Positions 5,666 through 63,084 are shown, counted from the stretch's first letter. The stretch: DNA of 64,000 bases from Dictyostelium discoideum (GCA_000004695.1 CM000151.3:6336001-6400000); one strand, 5' to 3'. Notes: generated by a model not told the origin, from the letters alone. Translations and numbers: made by a program.

Positions 5666-6029
5666 TTTTTAAAAAAAAAAAAAAAAAAAATTGCGACAAC
5701 AATGGTTGTAATAAATTTAGTAATGACATCATTTCTAAAATATTTAGAAAGGATTTCTAAGCATCTAAATTTACAATTAATATAAGTTGATTATAGAAAA
5801 ATCAATTTATATTTAAAAAAAAAAAATAATAAAAAATAAATAATAAAAAAAAAAAAAAAAAAAAAAAATTTATTTGTATGATTTATATTTGTTATAAAAT
5901 ATTATATTATTATTTTTATTATTAGATTTTTTACATTACCTGAATGAATTTTCAAACCACATGTTTGTTATTTTTTTTTTTTTAAAATATTATATGGAAT
6001 CAATTTTAGAAAAAAAAAAAACTTTTATC

Positions 6030-6064
<35 letters not shown>

Positions 6065-6810
6065 TTATTTTTTTTTTTTTTTTTTTTAAATCAAAAAATC
6101 TATTTTTAGAGTTTTTTATTAAAAACTATAAAAAGGATTCTTGTTTTAATACTAAAAATAGAGATCATTTGGATGAAAACCAGATTTTTTTTTTTTTAAA
6201 AATAAAAATTGCTCAATTTTATTTGTACCACTGCATTGATGAAAACTGTGTGAAAATTATAATTTTTCTAAACACTTATTTATTTTTTATTTTATTTTTT
6301 TTTATTTTTATTTTTATTTTTATTTTTTTTTTTTTTTCAATTAAAATTTTTTTATTGAAAAAAACCCACAGAGGGGTGGGTGGAAACAATAAAAAAAATA
6401 AAAATAAAAAAAGTGAACAACAATAACCCAATCAATTTGTAAAATAATAAATAATTTATTAATTATAATAAATTTGTATTATCATATACAACATATGTGT
6501 TAAGATGTAGAGCGAATTTAATTTTTTTTTTATATTTTATTATTATTTTCATAATAAAAACAATTTAATTTTTATTATTATTTATTTTTATTATTATTAT
6601 TTAATTTATTTTTATTTTAATTTTTATTTTTTATTTTTATTTTTATTTTTATTTTTATTTTTATTTTTTATTTTTTTTTTATTAATTTTTTTTTTATTTA
6701 TTCAATAAATTTAAATTTGATATGATAATTAGTTAATCGTAATATTATAATATTTACATATAAAAGAAAAAAAGAAAAAAATTAATTAAAATAATTGAAA
6801 AATAAAAAAA

Positions 6811-56231: not shown

Positions 56232-57080
56232 TTATAATTTTGAAATTGGATGACCATGTCTACCTAAACCATTATTAAATGAAATTGAACCATTTAAACC
56301 TTGATTTAAGAATGATTTTAAACCAAGTTGATATTCATTAAATAAAGCATCATTTAAATTTAAACTCCATTGATCTAATGATGATTTTCTATCAGATTTT
56401 AAAGTTTGTTGAGGATTTGAAATGATTTGTTTTGCTAATGTAATTGAGTGAGCCATTAGTTGATCTTTTGATTCAACGATTCTATTTACAAGCCCAATTT
56501 GAAATGCTTCATTACTGTCCACAGCTCTACCTGTTAATATTAAATCCATTGCTCTTGATTGACCAATTAATCTTGGTAATCTAATTGTACCACCATCAAT
56601 AAGTGGTACACCCCATCTTCTACAAAATACTCCAAATGTAGATGACTTGGTTGCAACTCTTAAATCACACCATAATGCTAGTTCAAGACCACCAGCAACA
56701 CAATACCCATCTATACTACAAATTACAGGTTTGCTTAATTGTAATCTTGTGCATCCCAATGGTGCATAATCAGTTTCTTTTGGAGATAAAATTTTATTAC
56801 CTGATTCAATACCTTTTGGTATCTCTTTTAAATCTGCACCAGAACAAAAATTATCACCATTTCCACATAGTATACTTATTAATAAATTATCATCTTTATC
56901 AAATTCTTTAAAAATATTATATAAATCATCTGCTGTCTCTTTATTAATTGAATTCCTACTTGAATTTCTATTAATTTTTATTATTAATATATTTTTATCA
57001 ATAATTTCTATTAAAATATTATTATCATTTTTATTTATTGGTATCATTTTTTTTTTTTTAAATTTTTTTTTCATAGTCAA
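56232..57080 (-). CDS. Enoyl-CoA hydratase/isomerase (crotonase fold) with a C-terminal -SKL peroxisomal targeting signal
   Basis: Crotonase motifs are present: NFCSGADLKEI, CSIDGYCVAGGLELALWCDLRVAT and GVPLIDGGTIRLPRLIG. The C-terminus ..HGHPISKL* is a PTS1. The true start may be the second Met (MIPINKND, about 57047), since the first 11 codons are poly-K read from an A-tract. Confidence 0.7.
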   Translation of the reverse strand: MTMKKKFKKKKMIPINKNDNNILIEIIDKNILIIKINRNSSRNSINKETADDLYNIFKEFDKDDNLLISILCGNGDNFCSGADLKEIPKGIESGNKILSPKETDYAPLGCTRLQLSKPVICSIDGYCVAGGLELALWCDLRVATKSSTFGVFCRRWGVPLIDGGTIRLPRLIGQSRAMDLILTGRAVDSNEAFQIGLVNRIVESKDQLMAHSITLAKQIISNPQQTLKSDRKSSLDQWSLNLNDALFNEYQLGLKSFLNQGLNGSISFNNGLGRHGHPISKL

Positions 57081-57549: not shown

Positions 57550-58969
57550 TTAACAATAACCTAAATCATTAACATTATTATTATTAGTATTGTTATTATT
57601 AATATTATTATTATTATTATCATTTATTGAAATTGAAATTAAAGATTTATTTTCATGTTCGAGATCAAGTTGTTTTAATTTACTATCCCAATCATCTTGA
57701 GTTAAATCAATTTTAATTATAGGTGGTGAAGAAACTATTGGAGTGATTGAATCAGCTGAATGATAAACATCAATATTACTATTTGAATCACCAAATGTTT
57801 TTGCATAATAAGTTGGTGAAGAATTAAGAGATGATGATAATGAATTTAAATGATTATTATTATAATTATTATTATTATTATTAATTAAAGGTGAATTTAT
57901 TGGTGAAACATTACTTGATGATCTATTATAGGTTAAGCCAATTTCTTTAAGTTTTTCAATTATTATTGAGAAATCTTTTGGTCTATTTAATGGATTTCTA
58001 TCCCAACATTGTGTTATTAATTCTTTAAATTTTAAAGGTACATTAAATGGTATTTGTGGACGATAATTTTGTTTTGGATCAGAAACCATTGATGCCATCT
58101 CTTTTGGTGAATAAATTGTATTTGGTGGTGCATATGAAAACATTTGCCAAACTAATAAACCAAATGAATAGATATCGGATTTTTCATTAATTGGAGAACC
58201 ATTTAAATTCTCTGGTGCCATATAATGTATTGAACCACCTCTTAATTTCTTTGATTCACTTTGATTTGATGATAAACCAAAATCACAAACTTTTGCTGTG
58301 AATTCATTTGAACCGTATAATTGATTTGGTAATATCTCTCTCTTGAAATCTAATAATACATTATTTGAAGTTAAATCACGATGAATTATATGTTGTTTAT
58401 GTAGATATAGTATACCTTTAGCTATATCAGTTAAAAGTTTAACACGTAAATGTGGATTGTTTTCCAAAACTTTATGATTATTCATAAGGAATTGAGTTAG
58501 GTTACCACCAGACATCCATTCTGAAACTATACAATGATTGGTTTCCTTCTCACCATATTTTATACATGCAGCCATGAATTGAACTATATTTGGATGTCTT
58601 AAATTCGATAGAATCAATACTTCATGATAGAATGTATCACAAACTGTAATGGCTTCACAATGAGCTTTCTTTACAAATTTAATTGCAACTTCAGTCTCAT
58701 TCAATAAACCTTTTTTTACATCTCCAAAATTACCTGCTCCGCCTTCTGAATCATCTTTATCAAATTCTAACTCTTCAAATTCAATCTCCCATTTTGGTTT
58801 TTCATATTGTGGTGCAAATTTAGCTGGAAATCTTGATGATAAATAATTATCTTTTTCATTTTCAATTTCTTCAAAATCGTCATCATCTTTAAATTTTGGT
58901 TCAACACCATAATTTTTACTTTTATTTGGTCCAATTATATGTACCTTTTTTTTTTTTTTTTTTTAAAAA

Positions 58970-59014
<45 letters not shown>

Positions 59015-59411
59015 TATTAATAAATTATTTATTATTATTAATATTTATTAAAATTAAATAATTACAATTAATTTATGACTTAATAATTCTTCCATATAAG
59101 ATCTTTTTTTTGGATCAATAACTAAACAATGATTTAAAAAATCTTTTAAAGTATCAGATAAATGATCTGGTATAATTGGTATACCATTTAATTTTTGAGA
59201 TAAATCACCACCAGCCATTTCAATTATTGTACAACCTAAACTCCAAACATCTGATTTTCTAGTTGCTCTATAATTTCTCTTAACTTCTGGTGCCATATAA
59301 TTGAATGTACCAATGATTGCAAATGAACTTTGTTTATATTGTTCATTTAAATAAGTTGAAATTCCACTACCACTACCATTTAAATCATTATTATTATTAA
59401 TATTATTAATA

Positions 59412-59488
<77 letters not shown>

Positions 59489-60094
59489 TGGATTATTATT
59501 ATTATTTGTAGTCTCATTTAAATATTGTTCAAATTGTTTTTTATTTTGAATTGTTGATGCACCAAAATCAATTAATTTTAAATTCTTATTCTTATCTAAT
59601 ACTAAATTTGCAGTTTTAATATCCCTATGAATTACATGATGTTTATGAAGGAATGATAATGTCTCAACTAAATCAGCAATCATTGATATTATTCTACTCT
59701 CTTTAAATCTACCTTGTTTTTTGGTTTTTAATATATTTGCTAAATTTTCACCTTCAATATATTCCATATAAATATAAATAAAATTATCATCTTCTGCATG
59801 TGAATAATATCTTGGTATATTAAATAATCTAATTTTTTCTAAAATATCGGTTTCATTTCTTTTCTATACAAATTTAAAATTATTTAATATTTAATAATTT
59901 AATAATTTATTTTTATTTTTATTTTTTAAATGGCAACATACAAATTTATCTTTACTAATTATTTTAATTGCAACGTAATCAACTTGTTCATTTAATATAA
60001 ATCCATTTTTTTTTCTACATTTTATAACTCTACCATATTGACCTTCACCAATAAAAGAAATTTCTTCCCAATCATCTTTATTATGATAATGCAT
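57550..60094 (-). CDS. Dual protein-kinase-domain protein (N-terminal STE-like kinase plus C-terminal TKL-like kinase); 3 exons (60094..59942, 59863..59066, 58944..57550), 781 aa
   Basis: Exon 1 encodes GEGQYGRVIKC..VAIKII and ends at a GTATGT donor. Exon 2 encodes ..HRDIKTANLVLD..DFGAS-[poly-N insert]-YMAPE..DVWSLGC and ends ..SHKLI at a GTAATT donor. A 110-bp AT-rich intron ends ..aaaag. Exon 3 encodes the second kinase, VAIKFVKK..HRDLTSNNVLLD..DFGLS..YMAPE..SDIYSFG, plus an N/S-rich tail. All junctions are phase 0. The summed length is 2346 nt, divisible by 3. Confidence 0.6.
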
Positions 60095-60211
60095 TTTTTA
60101 TTATTTTTATAATATATAAAATATTTATATATATTTTTTGTAATATTACAAATTATTATTTTTTTTTTTTTTTTTGCTCTTTTGTTTTGTTTATTTTAAT
60201 TTTTAATTTTT

Positions 60212-60247
<36 letters not shown>

Positions 60248-60681
60248 ATAAACTTCTTCTGAGTGGTTTGTAAAAAGACGGTTTATTGGTCTATTTTTAG
60301 CTACTATATAAAACAAATAAATATTATTCAACAAATAATATAATATATTATTTGAATAAAATATTAAAAAATATTAAAAAACATAAAAAAAAAAAAACAT
60401 AAAAAAAAAAAAAAAATAAGACGAACGTTAACAACTGATCTTTTTTTTTTTTTCATAATTTTTTTTTTATTTTTTATTTTTTTTTTGTGTTTTAGAAAAT
60501 ATCTTTTTTTTTTTTTTTTTACCCATCCCTTTCTCAGAAAATAACTTTTTTAAACCTTTTTGTTTTTAAATCAATGCTATCCCAAAAAAAAAAAAAAAAA
60601 AAATAATATATTATTTTCTCTTTTTTTTTTTTAAATTTAATAATATATTTAATAATTTAAAAATTTTAATTAATATAAATA

Positions 60682-60736
<55 letters not shown>

Positions 60737-60809
60737 AAAAATCAAACAAAATATTTATTTATTTTTATTTTAATTTTTTTTTTTTTTTATTATTATTTTT
60801 AATTTATAT

Positions 60810-63084
60810 TTACAAAAATCCTGAATTATAAAATCCACTACCATAGGTTGATGAGTCATCTGATGTAGAATAACTAGAATTACCAGAGTTGGAAATTGAA
60901 ATTGTAGAAATTGTTGTAGTGATAGCTGTTGAAGAAATTGTTGATGCATTTGAATTATCTTGGAAATAAATTTGATTTATATCTTTTAATTTATCAATTA
61001 TTTCAGAGAAATCTTTTGGTCTATTTAATGGATTTCTATCCCAACATTGTGTTATTAATTCTTTAAATTTTAAAGGTACATTAAATGGTATTTGTGGACG
61101 ATAATTTAATTTTTCATCAGAAACCATTGATGCCATCTCTTTTGGTGAATAAATTGTATTTGGAGAGGCATATGAAAACATTTGCCAAACTAATAAACCA
61201 AATGAATAGATATCAGATTTTTCATTAATTGGAGAACCATTTAAATTCTCTGGTGCCATATAATGTATTGAACCACCTCTTAATTTCTTTGATTCACTTT
61301 GATTTGATGATAAACCAAAATCACAAACTTTTGCTATAATTTCATCAGAATCATAAAATTGTTCATCATTATTACTACTATTATTATTTAATAATTTCTT
61401 TTTTCTAAAATTTAATAATACATTATTTGAAGTTAAATCACGATGAATTATACCTTGTCTATGAGAATAAAGCATACCTTTTGCAATATCTAATAAAATT
61501 TTAACACGTAAATGTGGATTAATTTCTAGAATTTTACGTTCATTTGAAATGAATTGTGAAAGGTTACCACCAGACATCCATTCTGAAACTATACAATGAT
61601 TCACTTCTTTATTGTCAAATTTAATACATGCAGCAATGAATTGAACTATATTTGGATGTCTTAAATTCGATATTATCAATACTTCATGATAAAATGTATC
61701 ACAAACTGTAACATTTTCACCATGAGCTTTCTTTATTAATTTAATTGCAACTTCAGTCTCATTATAATATCCTTTCTTTACAACACTAAAAAATCCATCA
61801 CCACCAACTGTATCATCTTTATTAAATTTTAATTCATTAAATTCAATTTCCCATTTTGGTTTTTCAAATCTTGGTGCAAATCTTTCTGGAAATTTTGAAG
61901 ATAAATAATCATTATTAAATTTTGGTTCAATATTATTTTCTCTATTTTTATTTTGTCCAACCATTGATGACTTTTTTTTAATAAATAAATAAATTAATAA
62001 ATTATTATTATTATTATTATATTTTTTTTTATTAATAAATAATAATAAAACCTACAATTAATCTATGAGTTAATAATTCTTCCATATGTGATCTTTTATT
62101 TGGATCAATTATTAGACAACGTTTTATAAAATCAACCATAATCTCTGAAACATGATTTGGTATAATTGGAATACCATCAAATATTTTCTTTGGATTACCA
62201 CCAACAATTTCAAGAACTGTACATCCTAAACTCCAAACATCTGATTTTTTAGTTGATCTATGTAATTTTTTAACTTCTGGTGCCATATAAGTATGAGTAC
62301 CAGTGATTGCAAATGAACTCTCTTTACAAATATTATCACCATCATCTTGTTGTTGGTCAATAATTGATGAACCAAAATCAATTAATTTTAATACTCCATT
62401 CTTATCCAATATAATATTTGATGGTTTAATATCTCTATGAAGAATTTGATGTTTATGAAGGAATGAAAGTGTTTCAGTTAGGTCTGCAATCATTGAAATA
62501 ATTTCAGACTCTTTAAATCTTAATTGTTTTTTATCTTTAAAATATTACATTGTTTTTTTTTCATTTTTAATAAATTTGCTAAATTTTCACCTTCAATATA
62601 TTCCATATAAATATAAATATAATTATCATCTTCTGCATGTGAATAATATCTTGGTATATTAAATAATCTAATTTTTTCTAAAATATCGGTTTCATTTCTT
62701 TTCTATACAAATTTAAAATTATTTAATATTTAATAATAAAATTTAAAAATAAAATTTAAAAAAATAAATTATAAAATTAAAATATTAAAATATAAAATAT
62801 AAAATATAAATATAAAATATTAGTTTAAATTTATTTTTTGAAAAAAATAAAATAAAAATAAATAACTTTTATAATGATTTTTGATAACTTACAAAAAACT
62901 TTTTATTTATTATTTTAACAGCTACAATATCAACTTTTTCATTTTCTATCAAACCATTCTTCTTTCTACATTTAAGTACTCTACTTTTTGAATTACAAGA
63001 TCCAATAGATGAAATTTCTTCCCATTCTTCTTTTTTGTGAGAATTCATTTTTTTTTTTTTTTTTTTTTTTTTTCCCCTCAACAA
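60810..63084 (-). CDS. Dual protein-kinase-domain paralog (exons about 63048..62893, 62702..62056, 61970..60810). The first kinase domain carries a frameshifting 29-bp imperfect tandem duplication.
   Basis: Exon/intron positions match the paralog at 57550..60094 (donors gtaagt and gtaggt; acceptors ..tatag and ..aaaag). The second (TKL) kinase domain is intact (384-aa ORF). In exon 2, 29 extra bp at about 62520..62556 introduce an in-frame TAA relative to the splice frame. The sequence tctttaaatcttaattgtttttt is followed by the near-repeat atctttaaaatattacattgttttttttt. The gene may be a pseudogene, may use an internal start at MIADLTETL.., or the duplication may be a sequence error. Confidence 0.45.

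Follow-up and report, generated by a model that had tools for sequence, protein, structure and literature searches.

Introduction

Kinases with two catalytic domains in one polypeptide are a recognised component of the Dictyostelium kinome. Nine such dual-ePK proteins are known (kinome paper), making the arrangement less unusual in this organism than was implied by an earlier note on the DNA described here, which called it uncommon. DPYK3/Pyk3, FNIPK-E, IfkA/GCN2 and the Other/Dicty9 family likewise carry two ePK domains per polypeptide. The products of zakA and zak2, classified in the kinome paper as STE/Dicty3/NZAK plus TKL/CZAK dual-domain tyrosine kinases, differ from these in that their domains come from two groups (STE and TKL), with both domains of ZakA predicted to be active and the STE domain of Zak2 entered as "aq", questionably active.

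The literature describes ZAK1 and ZAK2 as tyrosine kinases that both activate GSK3 in developmental cell-type choice. Phenotypes of zak2-null mutants were reportedly described by Kim et al. in 2011. ZAK2 is the protein also called DPYK4, an active tyrosine kinase activating GSK3 (PMC3135261). Here we analyse a window of 64,000 nucleotides from D. discoideum, which at zak2 matches the AX4 reference sequence, and in which a tandem pair of dual-domain kinase genes contains one copy with a broken reading frame. The joint explanation in which we have good confidence is that the pair is the published zak2 (DPYK4) and zakA (ZAK1), and that the broken frame is an error of the reference.

Results

Exon modelling and Pfam Pkinase hits reveal two head-to-tail genes on the minus strand, each of which has three exons and encodes two protein-kinase domains, bearing out the tandem dual-kinase pair that had been described from the sequence. 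On that strand zak2 lies upstream (63048..60810) and zakA downstream (60094..57550). The zak2 model (DPYK4, DDB0229958; UniProt Q552C6) runs from ATG to TAA; its ATG is at 63048, not at the start of 63084 given earlier. Exon 1 (62893..63048, 156 nt) encodes the start of the STE/NZAK domain, with a degenerate G-loop (GSCNSKS) and VAVK, and ends at a GTAAGT donor. Intron 1 (62703..62892, 190 nt, 95% A+T) is followed by exon 2 (62056..62702), which holds the remainder of the STE domain and in which the frame is broken, by intron 2 (61971..62055, 85 nt, phase 0), and by exon 3 (60810..61970), with a linker, the TKL/CZAK domain (about 61814..60975) and a Ser/Thr-rich tail. The zakA gene (ZAK1, DDB0185184) is intact and encodes 781 aa. 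Its exon 1 (59942..60094) has a canonical G-loop (GEGQYG) and VAIK; exon 2 (59066..59863) completes the STE domain, whose activation segment includes a poly-Asn tract at about 59510..59390; and exon 3 (57550..58944), beyond intron 2 (58945..59065, phase 0), encodes a linker, the TKL/CZAK domain (about 58740..57949) and an Asn/Ser-rich tail. In both genes intron 2 links the STE and TKL halves and begins, as the earlier note had it, directly after the first domain (HKLI or HRLI, then GT). The length given there for zak2 (85 nt) stands, while the 110 nt given for zakA should be 121 nt. The four real introns of the two genes span 78-190 nt and are 91-97% A+T.

The identity of the genes is supported at the protein level. 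Two exact protein matches were obtained for zak2. When 62590..62535 is removed, the model becomes AX4 Zak2 (Q552C6/XP_643302, 635 aa), and when one A is added to a run of six (A6), it becomes a protein of 654 aa identical to KAM9945946.1. The upstream copy is thus the same gene as Zak2/DPYK4, with the same STE/NZAK plus TKL/CZAK architecture. The kinome supplement prints the first ~420 residues of ZakA, and over these the zakA model agrees with that sequence, poly-Asn tract and domain junction HKLIVHIIGPNK included; the downstream copy is the same gene as ZakA/ZAK1 and nothing material differs. An exact look-up of the 781-aa zakA model in the protein collection returned no match. In the assembly that contains the locus of KAM9945946.1 (L001), a protein of 781 aa is called at the zakA position.

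The motif table places HRDIKxxN, HRDLTSNN and DFG in the domains where they had been described. VA(I/V)K, HRDIKxxN and DFG are present in the N-terminal, NZAK-type ePK domain of both genes (HRDIKTAN and DFGAS in zakA, HRDIKPSN and DFGSS in zak2), the zak2 domain being incomplete until the missing A is put back. The C-terminal TKL (CZAK) domain has VAIK, HRDLTSNN and DFG, here followed by LS (DFGLS), in both. The poly-Asn insert reported ahead of the APE of domain 1 is indeed found in zakA, where DFG to APE spans 95 aa. Among the best PDB matches of domain 1 are MST3/4, STK25, MEK1 and PAK2 (E about 1e-26 to 1e-23), with GCN2 and NEK2 slightly higher, compatible with a STE-like domain; in the kinome tree ZAK domain 1 falls in STE/Dicty3, beside the FNIPKs. 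For domain 2 the best matches are CTR1, MLK4, TNNI3K, Roco4 and MLK1, then ABL, and these comparisons agree with its assignment to the TKL group. The proposed joining of a STE-like to a TKL-like kinase in both paralogs is in this way supported, by agreement for the second domain and by compatibility for the first.

When 1.84 billion representatives were scanned exhaustively with HMMER, just one cluster matched from end to end, that of the ZAKs. The nearest single-domain relatives are FNIPK-type STE/Dicty3 kinases and SplA-type TKL kinases, matching the kinome tree. The STE domain shares 42% identity with D. purpureum DICPUDRAFT_146611, which has FNIP repeats, and the TKL domain 49% with DICPUDRAFT_53617 of the same species, a SplA-like protein with a SPRY domain. 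Unlike the ZAKs, these kinases have one ZAK domain type each, never the STE and TKL pair.

Both domains appear to be carried on one transcript and in one polypeptide. The connecting intron, with GT..AG ends and in phase 0, is at the same site in six genes of three species, its position being the same in all zak2 orthologs; retention of intron 2 in zakA leads to immediate stops; and the linker has a dN/dS of 0.08-0.24. No ATG, GTG or TTG lies in frame between the intron-2 acceptor of zakA and the TKL G-loop. Published curated models unite both domains in one protein (kinome supplement). That the STE and TKL halves are separate genes was considered and ruled out, given the lack of a start codon for the TKL half of zakA, the conserved phase-0 splice and the constrained linker.

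The earlier note was right that the frame of domain 1 is broken in the upstream paralog. In the window, exon 2 of zak2 is 647 nt long, and the frame is lost and reaches a premature TAA after ...CNILKIKNN. The three-exon structure is common to all orthologs, and in these exon 2 is a multiple of three: the near-identical strain has 648 nt, and D. citrinum and D. firmibasis both have 642 nt. The break was attributed to an imperfect 29-bp tandem duplication, and on that view the gene may be turning into a pseudogene or into a single-kinase gene. A repeat does exist at this site: Tandem Repeats Finder (TRF) reports 62510..62558 (period 26, 2.0 copies, 88% matches, score 77), a score that only one in 300 simulations of the exon under a Markov-1 model reached, and in the window zak2 exceeds zakA by a net 29 nt. 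In codon register, the first copy (62547..62576, 30 nt, NLLKMKKKQC) falls in the STE-domain loop between alphaD and alphaE and is kept in all zak2 orthologs; the second (62521..62546, NILKIKKQL) is homologous to NILKTKKQG of zakA and has 26 nt here and 27 nt in all other assemblies. DNA alignment and protein comparison show that the insert is 30 nt, or ten codons, and in frame in five other assemblies (three of D. discoideum, D. citrinum and D. firmibasis). Thus the repeat and the 29-nt excess over the paralog stand, whereas the frameshift does not come from the duplication; the window is short of one A. The species that share the insert are placed 50-100 My apart (genome paper), and from these alignments we regard the ten-codon duplication as an old, normal and conserved feature of zak2.

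This leaves the reading of zak2 as a decaying gene barely credible. An ATG does follow the intron-2 acceptor of zak2 (SSMVGQ...), as a gene reduced to its TKL half might have. Against this, all catalytic motifs of the STE domain are retained in every species, and its dN/dS is 0.17 against D. citrinum and 0.15 against D. firmibasis, with 0.12 for the comparison of those two species, values similar to those of the TKL domain (0.10-0.18). At about 0.15, these ratios place the STE domain under purifying selection. A disabling lesion is present, in the form of the 647-nt exon and its premature TAA, but constraint is not relaxed, and the lesion is neither shared nor accumulating, as the five other assemblies are in frame. 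Evolutionary pseudogenisation of zak2 is not supported, and the only defect is one base.

That base is missing from an A6 run at 62527..62532, within the second repeat copy, which alignment and assembly comparison identify as the actual site of the frameshift; L001 carries seven (A7). In the other assemblies the codon concerned is ATA, ATG, ATT or CTT, and in the window it lacks its third base. Over 9.2 kb, window and L001 differ by three substitutions and ten homopolymer lengths, and the change from A7 to A6 at 62532 is the sole coding indel. The window has no second defect in zak2. Exact look-ups of the truncated 112-aa product and of the exon-3 ORF in the protein collection gave no match. 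We also considered that the A-run might cause programmed frameshifting or slippage of transcription; nothing supported this, and the A7 genomes need neither.

In the official AX4 model the shift is concealed by treating 62535..62590, a 56-nt stretch with GT..AG ends, as an intron. Its excision restores the frame and yields exactly the deposited 635-aa protein, as a genuine intron would, which would make Zak2 a protein with a shortened STE domain. We consider this very improbable. In the A7 assemblies the same excision would break the frame, and there the stretch is read as the protein segment GENLANLLKMKKKQCNILK, which is conserved apart from a single conservative substitution in D. citrinum. 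Aligned to zakA, the stretch pairs with coding sequence codon by codon; it is 85.7% A+T and 56 nt long, versus 91-97% and 78-190 nt in the four real introns; and its removal deletes helix alphaD. On ortholog coding conservation, alignment and composition we reject it as a true intron. Relative to the other assemblies, Q552C6 is 19 residues short (GENLANLLKMKKKQCNILK) and has I changed to D at the junction. The entry "partial kd" for this domain in the kinome table follows from the missing helix.

As the official model needed a masking intron, the lesion lies in the deposited AX4 sequence and not in the window alone. Two explanations then remain to be weighed: a base-call error in the reference, and a real 1-nt deletion private to the AX4 line (perhaps AX3/AX4), by which the reference laboratory strain would be a spontaneous loss-of-function mutant whose zak2 mRNA encodes just a 112-aa fragment of the N-lobe, the TKL domain being untranslated. 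The comparison depends on the strain behind L001. The data set from which it comes (Nanopore and Illumina) includes AX2-214 as its only laboratory strain, and the wild isolates in it are said to have diverged from AX4. From the near-identity to the window and the strain list of that paper, L001 is probably AX2-214. The alternative that L001 is a wild isolate and its four differences natural polymorphism is less likely, given this divergence and the difference of about 2% in the zak2 proteins of those isolates.

At all three substitutions the state of the window is unique, with L001, L004 and L005 in agreement (joined at 60056 by D. citrinum and D. firmibasis). Ax2 and AX4 have the identical axeB lesion, and therefore a recent common axenic ancestor; with a measured mutation rate of 2.9e-11 per site per generation, three further substitutions unique to the reference in the same 9.2 kb are far more than two such laboratory lines should show. 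The AX4 reference, with coverage listed as 8x, differs in common from resequenced AX4 lines at 1916 sites, which the authors of that work blame on reference errors or ancestor differences, and such a record of some 1900 discrepancies argues against a real deletion, as does the absence of any other defect in the remainder of the gene. Moreover, ZAK2/DPYK4 has been regarded as catalytically active and as having a part in development.

The AX4 reference is the odd one out at each of these three substitutions, and we favour the error: the missing A is most probably a base-call error in the 8x Sanger sequence. Against this, a homopolymer of six or seven bases is not a typical site of Sanger error, and a frameshift in a developmental kinase could survive in an axenic laboratory line. 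The broken frame in the window and the masking intron in the official model are also what a real deletion would leave, and phenotypes of gsk3-null mutants are unlike in the DH1 and AX2 backgrounds. There is precedent too: Dictyostelium kinase pseudogenes (kinome paper, Figure 6) likewise have a frameshift in a conserved region hidden by an automatically predicted intron, and the kinome authors took 15 other such loci as real pseudogenes, some of them checked by RT-PCR. DPYK4 is absent from that list and differs in its single lesion, intact orthologs and purifying selection. A real deletion we consider unlikely, though well short of negligible.

Discussion

Under the base-call error that we prefer, the second repeat copy would have an A7 run that was read as A6, so that the frame of zak2 was lost in the reference; a spurious 56-nt intron would then have masked the shift, giving a 635-aa protein without helix alphaD, while the true product would be 654 aa long with a complete STE domain. 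Little of the biology is new, in that the tandem pair, the STE plus TKL architecture and the role in GSK3 activation are already known from publications. What the locus does show is how a conserved in-frame micro-duplication beside a homopolymer can mimic pseudogenisation in a single assembly.

The main point is one of curation. The 635-aa model of zak2, with its "partial" domain and "questionable" activity, appears to rest on a spurious intron that hides a one-base shortfall in an A-run, and in every other sequenced relative the product is 654 aa with the first kinase domain complete. Anyone modelling, mutating or tagging ZAK2 from the reference, or using AX4 as the wild type for GSK3 signalling, needs to have that base checked. 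If the A6 run should prove real in AX4, and perhaps in AX3-derived stocks, it could be one contributor to the reported background effects by which AX2 and strains derived from AX3/DH1 differ in phenotypes of the GSK3 pathway.

Identity and architecture of the ZAK gene pair

The two tandem dual-kinase genes are the known zak2/zakA pair. The upstream gene (minus strand; exon model from an ATG at 63048 to a TAA at 60810, with exons 63048-62893, 62702-62056 and 61970-60810 and introns of 190 and 85 nt) corresponds by cluster look-up to AX4 "Dual specificity protein kinase zak2" (Q552C6/XP_643302, 635 aa). Its neighbor zakA, also on the minus strand, runs from ATG 60094 to TAA 57550 (exons 60094-59942, 59863-59066 and 58944-57550, introns of 78 and 121 nt), with an uninterrupted translation of 781 aa. 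In the Dictyostelium kinome paper, DPYK4 (DDB0229958) and ZakA/ZAK1 (DDB0185184) are classed as kinases with two domains, combining STE/Dicty3/NZAK with TKL/CZAK; DPYK4 is ZAK2, and both ZAK1 and ZAK2 act as tyrosine kinases, activating GSK3 during development (PMC3135261). The ZakA sequence printed in the kinome paper (approximately the first 420 residues) agrees with our zakA model, also across the poly-Asn tract and at the junction HKLIVHIIGPNK. The exact 781-aa zakA translation was not found in the protein collection, while L001, the locus of a near-identical D. discoideum assembly (GCA_054883475.1), has a 781-aa gene call in the same place. Two homolog searches with fragments of zak2 likewise missed the zak2 cluster. 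Such misses look like index gaps for low-complexity Dictyostelium proteins.

The anatomy proposed in the earlier note largely holds, including its reading of an STE domain followed by a TKL domain and its kinase motifs in both genes; the genes themselves were already known. Each conceptual protein contains two Pfam protein-kinase domains. The best solved relatives of the TKL domain are CTR1, MLK4, TNNI3K, Roco4 and MLK1, and those of the STE domain include MST3/4, MEK1 and PAK, with slightly higher scores for GCN2 and NEK2. The intron between the halves is in phase 0, directly after ..HKLI or ..HRLI, and its retention would lead to immediate stops (after LIVII and LIVGFIIIY). A separate gene for the zakA TKL domain is ruled out, because no in-frame ATG, GTG or TTG was found between the intron acceptor and the glycine loop of that domain. 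The same three-exon layout is found in all orthologs, where the length of exon 2 is divisible by three. On its downstream side, zakA adjoins an ECH_1 (enoyl-CoA hydratase) gene (57047..56232, minus strand, 271 aa), and this gene order, zak2-zakA-enoyl-CoA hydratase, is kept in all five other assemblies.

When the zakA protein was used to search for homologs, dual-kinase proteins came up solely in D. discoideum, D. citrinum and D. firmibasis; D. purpureum and other groups have been reported to lack both ZAKs (PMC4931340, PMC5941370). In an HMMER search run exhaustively over 1.84 billion cluster representatives, the ZAK cluster itself was the one cluster matched from end to end. Both of the closest relatives with one kinase domain are from D. 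purpureum: an FNIP-repeat kinase for the STE half (42%) and a SPRY-domain, SplA-like kinase for the TKL half (49%).

An in-frame duplication and a missing base in zak2

Exon 2 of zak2 is 647 nt long in the window; its frame is therefore broken, with a TAA after ...LLKMKKKQCNILKIKNN. The earlier note ascribed this to a frameshifting 29-bp duplication. Alignment with zakA does give a net gain of 29 nt at 62576..62521, and TRF finds an imperfect tandem repeat at 62510..62558 (period 26, two copies, 88% matches, score 77; among 300 exon sequences simulated under a Markov-1 model, one scored as high). In codon register, the first copy is AATTTATTAAAAATGAAAAAAAAACAATGT (30 nt, NLLKMKKKQC), directly followed by the second, AATATTTTAAAGATAAAAAACAATTA, of 26 nt in the window; the zakA equivalent is one unit, NILKTKKQG. 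However, the DNA alignment shows that zak2 in L004 and L005 (the loci of two further, diverged D. discoideum assemblies), in D. citrinum and in D. firmibasis has an insert of 30 nt, in frame, when compared with zakA of the same genome. Because this insert is common to other assemblies and species, the duplication is an old, conserved, in-frame feature; in the STE domain it falls within the alphaD-alphaE loop.

The codon at the lesion is ATA, ATG, ATT or CTT in other assemblies and AT- in the window. The frame is recovered when the A6 run (62532..62527) is lengthened by one A, and the resulting 654-aa protein is identical at every residue to KAM9945946.1, from the L001 assembly. What breaks the frame is one missing base and not the duplication.

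The official AX4 gene model

Removing 56 nt (62590..62535, GT..AG) from our model gives exactly the deposited 635-aa zak2, and therefore the window is the AX4 reference sequence at zak2. This AX4-model intron is coding in every other genome compared, where splicing it would break the frame. It encodes GENLANLLKMKKKQCNILK, which aligns with GENLANILK... of zakA and is nearly invariant; its A+T content is 85.7%, versus 91-97% in the four real introns, and it is shorter than each of them. We therefore reject it as a true intron. Its deletion removes helix alphaD, and hence the entries "partial kd" and "aq" for DPYK4 in the kinome table. What the AX4 zak2 model masks is probably a one-base reference error.

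A different annotation problem is seen in L004 and L005, whose deposited zak2 proteins (642 and 641 aa) lack VAVKIINKKFF, including the catalytic lysine. The DNA at 6001..6170 of each locus encodes this segment, followed by a GTGAGT donor, and its absence from the records looks like an annotation artefact.

Reference error or real allele

Over 9.2 kb, L001 and the window differ by three substitutions and ten homopolymer lengths. Nine of the length differences fall in long homopolymers between genes; the remaining one is the zak2 A-run (A7 in L001, A6 here), the sole homopolymer that is shorter in the window. In the window, the nine runs (63366, 63312, 63213, 60788, 60520, 60175, 57450, 57278 and 57122), all of A or T and at least 12 bases long, exceed their L001 counterparts by 1-12 bases; either compression of long reads in L001 or true variation in length could be the reason. 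At the three substitutions (63174, 63074 and 60056) the window base is unique, with L001, L004 and L005 agreeing at every site; at 60056 their base is shared by D. citrinum and D. firmibasis too. This pattern suggests that the reference error rate is raised locally.

The L001 data set combines Nanopore and Illumina reads; AX2-214 is its sole laboratory strain, sequenced at 79x versus 8x for the AX4 reference, and its wild isolates are described as diverged from AX4 (PMC12745789). Ax2 and AX4 have an identical axeB lesion, indicating a recent common axenic ancestor (PMC4374526), and mutation has been measured at 2.9e-11 per site per generation (PMC3466296). Resequenced AX4 lines have 1916 differences from the reference in common, which the authors took to be reference errors or differences in the ancestor (PMC3466296). 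With four changes unique to the reference within 9.2 kb, we infer that base-call errors are a better explanation than real divergence. The missing A is quite likely a reference error; that AX4 carries a real mutation at this position is rather unlikely.

Possible sequence exchange, and length variation

At the beginning of exon 2, taken together with approximately 35 nt upstream in intron 1, zak2 (62681..62582) and zakA (59842..59743) share 99% identity, while the flanks are 55-81% identical. In the TKL domain, a 300-nt segment of zak2 (61365..61066) is 92-97% identical to its zakA counterpart, exceeding its identity in the same columns to the orthologs from D. citrinum (89-97%) and D. firmibasis (82-94%). 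The same identity peaks are found within D. citrinum and within D. firmibasis. These may be signs of recurrent gene conversion between zak2 and zakA. The poly-Asn tract of zakA (approximately 59510..59390, exon 2, in the STE activation segment) is variable in length: the DFG-to-APE distance is 95 aa for AX4 and 85 aa for a second D. discoideum assembly, and in D. citrinum, where the Asn run is missing, it is 57 aa.

Selection on zak2

The suggestion that zak2 is turning into a pseudogene is contradicted by its pattern of conservation. For its STE domain, dN/dS is 0.17 in the comparison with D. citrinum, 0.15 in that with D. firmibasis and 0.12 when these two species are compared, close to the values for the TKL domain (0.10-0.18), and VAVK, HRDIKPSN, DFG and APE are retained in all species compared. 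Decay of zak2 is not supported. Conservation extends to the degenerate glycine loop, GSC(N/Y)(S/T)KS, for which the kinome table notes that DPYK4 "lacks G52". In exon 1 (63006..62986), GSCNSKS replaces GxGxxG; this degenerate loop is conserved in D. citrinum and D. firmibasis, while zakA keeps GEGQYG. The STE domain of zak2 may bind ATP in an atypical manner or have a regulatory role.
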